Source: Octopus vulgaris (lineage: Eukaryota). From it: 64,000 nucleotides of DNA. Both the position numbers and the translations under genes were made by a program. The stretch lies in contig OX597825.1 in assembly GCA_951406725.2 (NCBI GenBank), positions 18,476,001 to 18,540,000 on the forward strand, in the 5' to 3' direction. Numbering within the stretch: position 1 is the stretch's first letter; each line of letters begins with the position of its first letter. This document shows positions 11,718 to 62,146 of the stretch, piece after piece. Below the pieces are notes generated by a model, which saw only the letters and a program-made list of their open reading frames with translations, made no database searches and was not told the origin of the DNA.

Positions 11718-12463
11718 TCTAGGCCTCTCAGGCTATTGGGTAAATCCTATTTCATTTGTTTATTGACAGCTAGCCACAGTATACATAGATTAGAACTGGG
11801 TCTCATACCCTTGTGATGACCTAGGACAATTCAATGCACGAGATCTTATAGTATATATTAATCGACAGCAGGACACAGCATATATTAGAAAGGAAAAAAG
11901 TTGACTTCGCCAGGGATTGAGCCCAGAAAGTTGCGGTATTATTTTAGCAGGTGTTCGTTAAAACACTCGTGAATGGAAGAAAACTGAAAACGCTCTTTTA
12001 AAAACAAGGAAAAGAAAAAACAATTATGTGGAAGAATATAACATGGAATTGTAACTTCATGAATTTATAACAAACATCCACCATATCAACATCTAGGCCT
12101 CTCAGGCTATTGGGTAAATCCTATTTCATTTGTTTATTGACAGCTAGCCACAGTATACATAGATTAGAACTGGGTCTCATACCCTTGTGATGACCTAGGA
12201 CAATTCAATGCATGAGATCTTATAGTATATATTAATCGACAGCAGGACACAGCATATATTAGAAAGCAAAAAAGTTGACTTCGCCAGGGATTGAGCCCAG
12301 AAAGTTGCGGTATTATTTTAGCAGGTGTTCGTTAAAACACTCGTGAATGGAAGAAAACTGAAAACGCTCTTTTAAAAACAAGGAAAAAAAAAAACAATTA
12401 CGTGGAAGAATATAGCATGGAATTGTATCTTCATGAATTTATAACAACCATCCGCCATATCAA
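11718..12463. repeat. Near-identical 374-bp tandem duplication
   Basis: 11718-12089 is repeated at 12092-12463 with about 8 substitutions. Confidence 0.95.
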
Positions 12464-58847: not shown

Positions 58848-59337
58848 ATATCTATCTATCTATCTGCCTGTCTATCTATCTATATTCCTGTCTGTCTATC
58901 TATTTATCTCTCTGTATATGTTATATATTAGTAAGCTGACATAAAGTACATTTCTAACAGCACTTCAGATACTTGGAATCATTGGAGTTGATTCGAATTC
59001 TTCCTTAAGGAAAAATTAAGAACAACATCTCTCCGAACATCAAATGATGTTAGGAATAACGAATATAATCCAAGTGGGAACTAAGTATAGCAAAATATTT
59101 CACCGTTTGATGCATTCACTTCGGTTGCTGGAGGATATTTTTTCACTAAAACGTTGGTAGCTAAATTTGATTCTAAGGGTCGTTACCCTCTGGAAAACCC
59201 TTGCAAAGGAAGCTTAACAAAGGCCTCAAATCTTTATAAACCTCACTTATCTCATAAATAATTACTTTTCTTTCTTTATTTATTTATTTAGTTCTGTCTC
59301 TCACCCTATAAATATAATATATATATATATATACATT

Positions 59338-59366
<29 letters not shown>

Positions 59367-59370
<4 letters not shown>

Positions 59371-59840
59371 TGACAGGACACAGAAAGTGTGTCTATGGCC
59401 AGCTGGAGGAGTGTGTCCTCCTGGGGCTAAAAACTACAGTAGCATCCACCCTTAGGGGTAGCCATATTGAGATGGCAAATATACGTCACGATGTGTTACC
59501 GCTACGGTATATAACTCACTTTGATATTTATCATTGTTTGATTTCACTTTTTCAATATCAGCGACAGTGGACGCTGGAAAAAGTATAAGTATTTGTGAAG
59601 GAGATCTAATTCTCGCCGACAACTATGATTGTCACACGCTGACGAGAGGTCAATACCTCGAAACTCGAGTCCGTGTGTATCATAAGTTGAAGACGGGAAG
59701 GATGACTTCCCTTTGCAAATACTGACAGGACACAGAAAGTGTGTCTATGGCCAGCTGGAGGAGTGTGTCCTCCTGGGGCTAAAAACTACAGTAGCATCCA
59801 CCCTTAGGGGTAGCAATATTGAGATGGCAAATATACGTCA

Positions 59841-59844
<4 letters not shown>
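59367..59844 (+). mobile_element. Retrozyme-like element: 1.36 copies of a 352-bp monomer with an intact hammerhead, inserted in (TA)n
   Basis: 126-bp direct repeats 59367-59492 and 59719-59844 with one mismatch; (TA)n on both flanks; no recognisable protein. Confidence 0.88.
59620..59689 (+). ncRNA. Type I hammerhead ribozyme with intact core; predicted cleavage after GUC (C59671)
   Basis: CAACUAUGAU-ugu-CACACG / CUGACGA / GAGGU caau ACCUC / GAAA / CUCGAG / UC / CGUGUG-u-AUCAUA-AGUUG. Confidence 0.92.
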
Positions 59845-59874
<30 letters not shown>

Positions 59875-62146
59875 TTGTATATATACACATGCATACATAT
59901 ACACACACATCTGCATACATACACATTCACACAAAATCGTGTATATGTAGGTATTAGCTTTTCGCGACAGTAGCAGTATTCGTTGTATTAGATACGCTTT
60001 TATCCTTATATCTTACTTAAAGCATATATATTATTGAAAGCTTTTTAGTCACTCTGTAACTATATCATTTGGCCTCCGATTTTTGCTTACCACGTGACAC
60101 TTGTGGATTCTTGATACCGATGAATCCAAAAGAAGCAGACGTGCATACTTAGAAATACCACTGCCGCTGCTAGACAGATTTTGCCTACCGCTGAATATAT
60201 TTCTGTGGTTTTTAACATTGTACATGCATAATATATAGATGGGAGAGAAACACCAGTTATCTCCCATCTATATATATAAACTGGTCATATATGTACATTA
60301 TATGGGAACCGTCATGTTGCAGAGACTAAACTTTATTAGTCACATGAAAAGTTACAACACTGAATAACGAAATCGGTATCCTTTATATGATCGTTCCTCT
60401 TTCTGGAAATAATAAAAATTCCTTCAAATCATTTTCACTTTTTTTACACTTAAAGAGAAATGCGATATTAGATAACGTAATTATGAATACAAGGTAGTCA
60501 ATACTGGAATGCATATGACTCTGAGCATGTTTGATGATAACTAATCAACAGCAGATTTGTTAAATTTTGCTGTATCCAATCACTATAGATAAAAGTGTCA
60601 TTCTCTGTTGTATTAATAAGAGAGGTATTCGTTGGTCAGTTCAAACTTGAATGATTTGATGTTTTAGTTCAAGCAAGTGACTAATATGTACACATAATAG
60701 TTAATATAAGGGCTAGGCAGGGAAACAAAGCGGGGTGAGAAGATGGGATCTAGTGTATCGATTCAGGTGTGAAAGAAATGGTAAATATCTTTAGCTATTT
60801 TTGGAGCTGAAATCTTCGTACTTACGCAGAACCCACAGAGTGAGAGAACAACGCTTAGAAAGCATAATAGTGTTATGTGGGTTCAGTTTTCTGATATGGA
60901 TCTAGCTAGACTATTCAAGTTATTCACTAGCCACTAAAACAAGAAATATTTTCTGACTCTGAAAGGAAAGCAATTGTTTCAGATATAAATTTGCGATGTT
61001 ATGAACCTAGACATGGCGGCGATATGCTCAATAAACATACGGAATTAATTTGAGAATAATTTTCTGTTGTCAAAGATTATGGAATTTCAGATAGGTGATG
61101 TTCTCCTTGATATAAGTAGCGAATATGTCTGTGTGATGACCCATATGAAAAATTATAATGGGAGCCGTGAGACATCTAGGATAAGCTGTACCTAATCAGC
61201 CTCATTTGTTCTTGCATATTTTGAGACATATTCAAAATAATTTTCAATTTTTCCAGCATAGAAGTTTTCAGTTTTACCAGACAGTACAGCTTTGAGTAAG
61301 TGTAAAGACTGAACGAAAAATGCAAGTCTTCATAAGCAAATACAGAAACAAAGTCAGATCAGTTCGATAATATACATTTATGAGTATAAGGAAGCATGTG
61401 TAATTTTCACACATACACACACAAACATATATATTTGAATATTGCAGGACCTGGCTGTGGTTGAATATGTGACATATGTGACTATTTCATAAAGTTAGTA
61501 AGTAGCCATATAAAATGCCTAGAAATATTTGATGCGTTCTTTTGAATTCAGAGTACAAAAATAAACCGGAGCCGCAACATGAATGACAATTTATTAAAGA
61601 CTTTGGAAGAGAGTGGAAAGATAGTAACTGATCAGCGAAAAGAATAACTTCGATAGCAATATTAGTTTGTTCTAATAATAAATGTTTATAAAATGTTTCT
61701 TAAAATTTTACAACTAGAAACTGGATATTGGCCAGAACATTATATAAAACCTATTGAAAATGTTGATGAAATGTTGGGAGGTGGAGTAATATTTTTGGAA
61801 ATCCTTTAGCTTTTATATAAACTTCGAAAAAGAAAAACACTTCATATTGGTTTGGGTGTTTCTCCATACAAAGTCCCTAGAAATGATGGTCAGGTTCCTA
61901 AGATATTATCCATTCTCCACGAAGAAATGTTGTTTTAATGAGCCAACTTAAAATGTAATAATAGTGAAAACCGCTGGATCCAAGTGAAGTTTGATTTGAC
62001 CTGATCATATACAGTTTTAGATTTCATAAATCACAAAAATAGCAGAGGTTCGAAGGTTTAAGAGGATCGGGTGAAGTTTTGACATGATAAATTTATGCTT
62101 AATAAAACTTATTCATGCAAAGAATTATTCACGTTACCTTCTCTCA

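Follow-up and report, generated by a model that had tools for sequence, protein, structure and literature searches.

The question raised by this locus is how a short non-coding insert in a TA tract came to combine a terminal repeat with a ribozyme motif, and which machinery placed it there. The window, i.e., the whole 64,000-nucleotide stretch of Octopus vulgaris DNA that was analysed, contains at this point 1.36 units of a 352-bp non-coding repeat: a full unit (59370..59721, 43% GC) is followed by a partial second unit (59722..59844, unit positions 1-123) that stops at the 3′ site called A below. Both lie on the + strand, as do all motif coordinates that follow, and unit numbering starts at 59370, so that predicted cleavage falls after unit position 302. 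The original prediction had described a 126-bp direct repeat (59367-59492 and 59719-59844) with a period of 352 and a single mismatch, C59463 versus A59815, and all of this was found in the sequence; the first 3 bp of the insert (ATA) are common to the TA tract, and the redundancy is thus 123-126 bp. The longest ATG-started frame around the 352-bp circle is 38 aa, and a tRNA check of the unit found no tRNA in it. The target duplication, TATATACATTTGTATATAT, is present on both flanks (59328-46 and 59866-84) and is at least 14 bp long at this copy; TA runs separate each duplicate from the insert, the left duplicate (TA-CATTTG-TA) and its run occupying 59328..59369 and the right run and duplicate 59845..59885. 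The octopus origin agrees with an SLX1 exon of the same genome, whose 50 aa match a protein assigned to Octopus vulgaris at 100%, the next match being Argonauta at 80%. Elsewhere in the window (11718-12463) lies a 374-bp tandem duplication of 2.0 copies at 97%, with no hammerhead or Rfam match, which is probably a local duplication.

The type I hammerhead motif occupies 59633..59677, and its parts were present as originally described: the CTGACGA (59639-45) and GAAA (59660-63) of the core, a 5-bp stem II (59646-50/59655-59), a palindrome, and a GTC site with predicted cleavage after C59671. Stem I (59633-38/59672-77) continues into an extended bulged stem (59610..59699) with compensatory changes in older subfamilies, and the palindromic stem III, ACTCGAGT (59663..59670), is predicted to pair between two ribozymes in a dimer fold, an arrangement of the type described in the accessible text of PMC4209133. 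In folding calculations, the palindrome gave a self-duplex of -10.7 kcal/mol and formed no hairpin alone, and the monomeric active fold lay 5.9 kcal/mol above the local minimum. The Rfam check that had been suggested gave a divided answer, in that Hammerhead_1 (RF00163) matches 59633-59677 at 32.2 bits (E 5.2e-6) with all core bases present, but below the gathering score of 34, which was reached by no Rfam match anywhere in the window. This score under the cut-off and the weak monomeric fold would speak against a circle. The whole 352-nt unit folds at -111.9 kcal/mol (z -3.6), better than 100/100 shuffles. One of the hairpins put forward, UACCG/CGGUA, is private to the window copy because G59506, on which it depends, occurs in 1/192 aligned units; the copy has two private substitutions in all. 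When 29 copies, most of them old and decayed, were folded jointly with RNAalifold, the consensus was weak (-6.5 kcal/mol) and the hammerhead was not recovered in it, and pairwise fold tests on six diverged units gave modest support (P 0.001 to 0.095). The element had been called intact, and this holds for the ribozyme core but not for the insert, which with its single hammerhead is unable to release unit-length RNA or a circle itself; as two consecutive ribozymes are required according to the accessible part of Li et al., the window copy would be a product and not a source.

A 33-nt core of the unit has 439 exact matches in the genome (control 0); the locus is not single-copy, and the expectation of a young, multi-copy family was borne out. 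The family is dispersed as well as tandem, its units measure 352/353 bp with up to 6 units per arm in the young family, and at least two hammerheads stand in one arm at 22/57 loci chosen by the exact core only. Older sister families are present in the same genome, with relatives at about 89%, 75-80% and 70% identity besides a distant 342-bp family, and a degenerate hammerhead pattern gave 2729 matches versus 75 in the control. Across the sister families the hammerhead core is kept, stem II varies compensatorily (AGGT/ACCT versus GGGT/ACCC), and stem III is often another palindrome (CTCGAG, CCCGGG or CATATG). The 342-bp family (L234:2768-3400, L225, L243, L232; G000:C1) has CATATG as stem III, a hairpin with an ATTGAG loop and an A-like 3′ end in TA tracts. 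Further hammerhead-like families (L226-L231, L241; G000:C1), with CTGACG/CAGCCG or CACGTG as stem III, showed no tie to the unit or to a PLE (Penelope-like element) frame within 4 kb.

By its sequence-level features, the octopus family is a non-LTR retrozyme: each 352/353-bp tandem unit, a size within the 150-450 bp typical of the class, carries a type I motif, the units are dispersed, non-coding and below 50% GC, and target duplications, when present, exceed 4 bp (10, 13 and 9 bp at L004, L059 and L081, all non-TA targets). The window copy is a 5′-truncated member of this hammerhead-bearing tandem family. As far as the accessible text of PMC7229834 goes, metazoan non-LTR retrozymes share with it the 150-450 bp non-coding tandem organisation (mussel units are 350-390 bp), a GC content under 50%, a type I hammerhead whose helix III is short and palindromic, target duplications above 4 bp and PLEs in the same genome, and with the available part of Li, Clavereau & Pollet 2026 also the dispersal as monomers to multimers. 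The octopus family is known here from sequence, and, in contrast to the published families as these texts describe them, no pLTR sequence link was found for it among the three PLE families compared. The occurrence of retrozymes in molluscs was to be expected; a search of the literature, as distinct from repeat databases, retrieved no published description of the octopus family, in keeping with the original prediction, which knew of none in this lineage. No data set listed as containing the unit was recorded as RNA. Among four runs (three presumed to be RNA), a 383-nt contig spans the whole unit of the common haplotype (353+30), but as it is equally expected from a tandem, DNA or a circle, it was not used as evidence.

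Where such copies begin and end was followed at 89 young loci with 129 arms, aligned on a tandem ruler and drawn from roughly 260 core-bearing loci (an estimate from the 439 core matches). Fifty-seven loci were chosen only by an exact core on contigs 1-3, the rest being top BLAST hits, which favour long copies; L031, L035 (which duplicates L033) and, of L023, the arm belonging to an old subfamily were left out of all counts, and L060, with a misaligned internal inversion, was left out of the variant counts. The 3′ ends lie at site A (unit positions 119-123; internal copy 59488..59492) in 76/129 arms and at site B (positions 164-171; 59533-59540) in 46/129, with 7/129 in other places. These fixed sites, about 45 nt apart, delimit a tail (59493..59540); counted downstream from where cleavage is predicted, they lie at 173 and about 216-220 nt, and site A, the commoner, is presumably the start of reverse transcription. 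Just upstream of it, a hairpin with an ATTGAG loop (59461..59476) would be a candidate RT-binding element; a hairpin with the same loop stands before the 3′ end in the distant 342-bp family. A resemblance between a tail hairpin and one in a PLE tail was dropped, since it relies on a base private to the window copy. As predicted, insertion was into TA tracts (a TA run adjoins 114/129 3′ ends), and the 5′ ends are scattered over the whole unit. The permuted start points that had been forecast are therefore real at the 5′ side but not at the 3′ side, where 122/129 ends fall at the two sites, so that the terminal redundancy reflects a fixed internal start and a random stop, not a random entry into a circle.

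The variable 5′ ends also refute an LTR or TRIM element with 126-bp LTRs, to which the terminal direct repeat of the window copy might have pointed and for which fixed 126-bp ends with PBS/PPT had been named as the mark. The young family has arrays of up to 6 units, its ends lack the TG...CA form, no purine run exceeds 8 nt, and neither a PPT nor a 4-5 bp duplication belongs to the family; this reading can be given almost no credence. Plant LTR retrozymes, as covered by the available text of PMC4918200, are likewise non-autonomous and hammerhead-bearing and have a circular RNA intermediate, which in octopus would be the circle proposed below; they differ in that their hammerheads are of type III and lie within true LTRs, in having PBS/PPT and 4-bp duplications, and in relying on Gypsy helpers, traits that were not seen in octopus.

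All 40 loci with two arms are head-to-head, and in 36/40 one arm ends at A and the other at B, whereas A+A or B+B was seen in 0/40 and one odd end in 4/40; under independence, the chance of 36/36 A+B would be about 1.5e-12. The rule held in 25/28 two-arm loci of the subset picked by exact core alone on contigs 1-3, and in 7/9 two-arm cases among 20 further loci, mostly of sister subfamilies, the other 2/9 having one off-site end. Loci with a single arm end at A in 39 cases, at B in 7 and elsewhere in 3, and the window copy, ending at A, is such a one-arm insertion. Junctions between arms (39 cases) show overlaps of 1-16 nt in 25, a flush join in 3 and filler in 11. In 9/36 A+B loci, or 8/35 once the misaligned L060 is set aside, the shorter arm does not nest within the longer one, and two primings are therefore needed. 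L060 and L094, on different contigs and with different flanks, have the same arm junction (217/82) and nearly equal arm lengths. Target duplications were found at 20/89 loci versus 35/440 shuffled pairs, most being masked by TA runs. In a literature search, no published strict rule of one site per arm was found for PLE ends.

The original prediction had pointed to Penelope-like machinery, and the genome offers candidate helpers, with at least three families encoding an RT plus, at the C terminus, a GIY-YIG domain with a CX4CXXC linker, seen in the sequence, which according to the consulted part of PMC8557442 marks Neptune/Nematis. This count comes from a GIY-YIG search in which 150/6136 candidates were scored. 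Two of the families are young, with RT-GIY-YIG frames of 781 and 775 aa and DNA identities of about 98% and 99.7%, respectively. In one young PLE, 126/126 scored copies are listed at 100% over 316 aa, many with the 775-aa frame, and the 775-aa family, to judge from its sequences, is likely to have been active recently. Very young Neptune-type copies of the latter (L255:1775-6045, G000:C3; L147:2582-4983) form full-unit tandems of a 4.27-kb unit, and a degenerate minimal hammerhead-like motif lies about 140 nt before their first 3′ end. The 781-aa family (L135:430-5672, G000:C16) has 456-bp pLTRs and an upstream frame that overlaps the RT-EN frame in another phase; this frame reaches 479 aa in L138 and L145, and a 359-aa version had no Pfam match. 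Copies of the young PLEs have their ends in TA, at two sites separated by about 40 nt, and their two-arm loci were A+B in 3/3 cases (15 loci examined) and 12/12 (22 loci examined, some of them selected for being opposite-strand pairs, though without regard to end type). The retrozyme thus carries the PLE insertion signature, and the same A+B rule holds in the young PLEs (15/15). Its two 3′ ends about 45 nt apart (the tail), its 5′ truncation and its inverted arm are those of a non-autonomous PLE passenger, and an intact EN+ PLE of similar age is present in the genome. The retrozyme ends and the A+B rule speak clearly, at the genomic level, for mobilisation by a PLE.

A SINE-like element carried by a LINE, with arms inverted by L1-type twin priming, would also have TA-rich targets, 5′ truncation of varying extent, duplications of 9-13 bp where the target is not TA, and 5′ inversions, all of which are known for LINEs as well. 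Such an origin is nonetheless highly improbable here, given that a fixed 3′ tail is absent and that the end pattern equals that of the PLEs in the same genome; moreover, twin priming inverts non-overlapping parts of one RNA, unlike the two internal 3′ ends and overlapping inverted arms of the octopus loci.

A sequence link between the retrozyme and a helper was sought and not found in the material compared. Three PLE families shared no sequence with the unit (best E 0.33 and 4.1), the genome Rfam hammerhead search returned six matches, none related to the unit, and no autonomous parent sharing its sequence was among 20 loci fetched from degenerate hammerhead matches. No sampled PLE resembles the unit, unlike the 21/57 Xenopus families with pLTR homology reported in the available part of a preprint (bioRxiv 10.64898/2026.07.22.740005), and this would weigh against a PLE and circle model. 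At L057:33-1957, the 3′ UTR of a broken PLE passes straight into a retrozyme array with no TA spacer, the PLE part being 4-8% diverged from its family and the retrozyme about 1% from its own; the join could be a template switch, but a subsequent insertion accompanied by a small deletion is equally compatible with these values. At L238:2719-5000, an array is joined without a TA spacer to the 5′ region of a PLE, either by a template switch or by nested insertion. L031, with two cores 3.25 kb apart, was considered as a PLE and rejected as a duplicated insertion in an AT-rich satellite; retrozyme fragments lie within this duplicated, AATTTT-like satellite (L031:2396-5882).

The nature of the template was approached through the cleavage site and the sharing of variants. 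The site is crossed by 118/129 arms, 200 times in all, with nearby indels in two rearranged loci only, and 5′ ends fall at it in 3/129 arms versus 4.0 expected; from a linear RNA starting at the cleavage site, A-primed cDNA would stop after 173 nt. As the 89-locus sample had been selected on the core, crossing was also checked genome-wide: of 827 exact matches to the next 33 nt downstream of the core, 700 continue exactly across the site. Among eight loci lacking the bases upstream of it, six carry variants or extend further, and two (L274, L278) begin within 5 nt of the site, as a linear cleaved template would give. Within one arm the units differ by 0.56%, compared with 0.58% from arm to arm and 1.54% from locus to locus (88 loci), arms match at marker sites in 38/39 loci, and alleles found in at least 11 loci are uniform within the locus in 102/105 cases. 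The 148 sample-private substitutions are confined to one unit in 128 cases, occur in all covering units in 16 (a private substitution is shared by 6/6 units in L051 and by 5/5 in L026 and L050), and in some units in four (L051, L059, L039, L068). Single-unit variants recur between loci in 19 pairs versus 19.1 +/- 4.4 by chance, so that no block copying of heterogeneous arrays is seen. Because long uniform arrays exist for many haplotypes, a one-unit bottleneck followed by regrowth is needed, which rolling around a circle would provide. A circular RNA, probably one template per insertion, fits this variant pattern best; of the rolling reverse transcription originally envisaged, the circle would stand, although with a fixed entry.

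The same PLE machinery and start sites could instead have worked on an uncleaved linear multimer, or on a linear monomer by template jumping, with no covalent circle. This is unlikely. In its favour, ribozyme mutants left anole PLE insertion unaffected in vitro, where unprocessed RNA was used and no ribozyme cleavage was needed (PMC11167929). The weak monomeric fold, the two loci beginning near the cleavage site and the four partial variants, the one in L051 being in the same register in both arms, point in the same direction; these partial variants, together with a mosaic nine-unit older array (L282), would fit a multimeric template or later recombination. However, 5′ truncation of a linear template can only shorten arrays, whereas many haplotypes are uniform over 4-6 units and in both arms, shared single-unit variants are not in excess, the cleavage site is free of the scars that jumps would be expected to leave, and the core and palindromic stem III are kept across sister families. 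Matching arms would also be produced by two RNA molecules from one homogeneous source locus.

It is improbable that short single insertions were later expanded and homogenised as DNA by unequal crossing-over, gene conversion or fold-back repair. The mosaic of L282 and, within L059 and within L039, a variant shared by the junction-proximal units are what such events would yield, but the one A and one B end of each inverted pair (36/40) and the eight non-nested pairs are left unexplained, and the arrays, at 0.56% between units, are very young.

To return to the circular RNA, we consider it probable that the retrozyme is mobilised in trans by a Neptune-type PLE RT/GIY-YIG protein and copied from a unit-length circle. 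Transcripts with two or more hammerheads would cleave, probably via the dimer fold, to a 352-nt monomer, to be closed into a circle by a host ligase. Both strands of a TA-rich target would then be nicked by the PLE protein; one 3′-OH would prime at A and, in about half of the events, the other at B, the primer being held in each case by 2-3 nt of AU pairing. Every cDNA would roll around the circle, over the sealed cleavage site, and stop after a random distance, a single arm giving a tandem such as the window copy, and two arms, joined at their variable ends by microhomology, giving a head-to-head array that ends once at A and once at B. Within this cycle, transcription, cleavage, the circle and the identity of the acting PLE are the parts that we infer. 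In the available part of the Xenopus study, 8/9 dimers did not cleave (bioRxiv 10.64898/2026.07.22.740005), which would weigh against such a cycle. Whether PLE integration in general is a two-primer reaction on one RNA circle, with its own start site for each nicked strand and a microhomology join, we regard as evenly poised.

Much of this cycle has precedents among EN+ PLEs. As the available parts of PMC8557442 and PMC11167929 describe them, Neptune/Nematis elements resemble the octopus copies in their partial tandems, 5′ truncation, inverted 5′-truncated arm, one-ended tail (a frequent state according to PMC8557442), targets in TA microsatellites and 3′ ends that lie downstream of a hammerhead, whereas the octopus retrozyme has no ORF and its tail measures 43-47 nt versus 30-40. 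In vitro, the anole PLE cuts AT-rich DNA and extends both strands, two adjacent internal RNA start sites defining the tail (PMC11167929). In bulk, the start site did not differ by strand (Frangieh 2024, PMC11167929), unlike the single octopus insertions, in which the two strands always start at different sites. Non-autonomous Chlamys elements such as MRC1 are, in the accessible text of PMC8557442, short PLE passengers without coding capacity, which have pLTRs and insert in multiple head-to-tail copies; the octopus elements would be similar.

The hypothesis that PLEs move animal retrozymes by way of circular RNA has been put forward in the available texts of PMC7229834 and PMC4209133; its published basis is co-occurrence and pLTR homology, the latter reported for Xenopus in the 2026 preprint. 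The octopus family adds evidence at the level of single insertions, in that the same fixed ends and the same A+B rule are found in the retrozyme and in intact PLEs, and the sharing of variants in its arrays points to one template per insertion; the portions of the retrozyme papers that were available (PMC7229834 and the 2026 preprint) contain no map of insertion ends. The end map and the A+B rule make the hypothesis directly testable, and the 352-nt RNA, its mapped start sites and two very young PLE proteins are a ready system for testing tails, inversions and circularity. If true, a two-primer reaction on one circle would explain pLTRs, the one-sided tail and inversions at once, and the retrozyme, as a minimal substrate of 352 nt, would capture the PLE machinery through the structure of its RNA while having no similarity in sequence to the helper.
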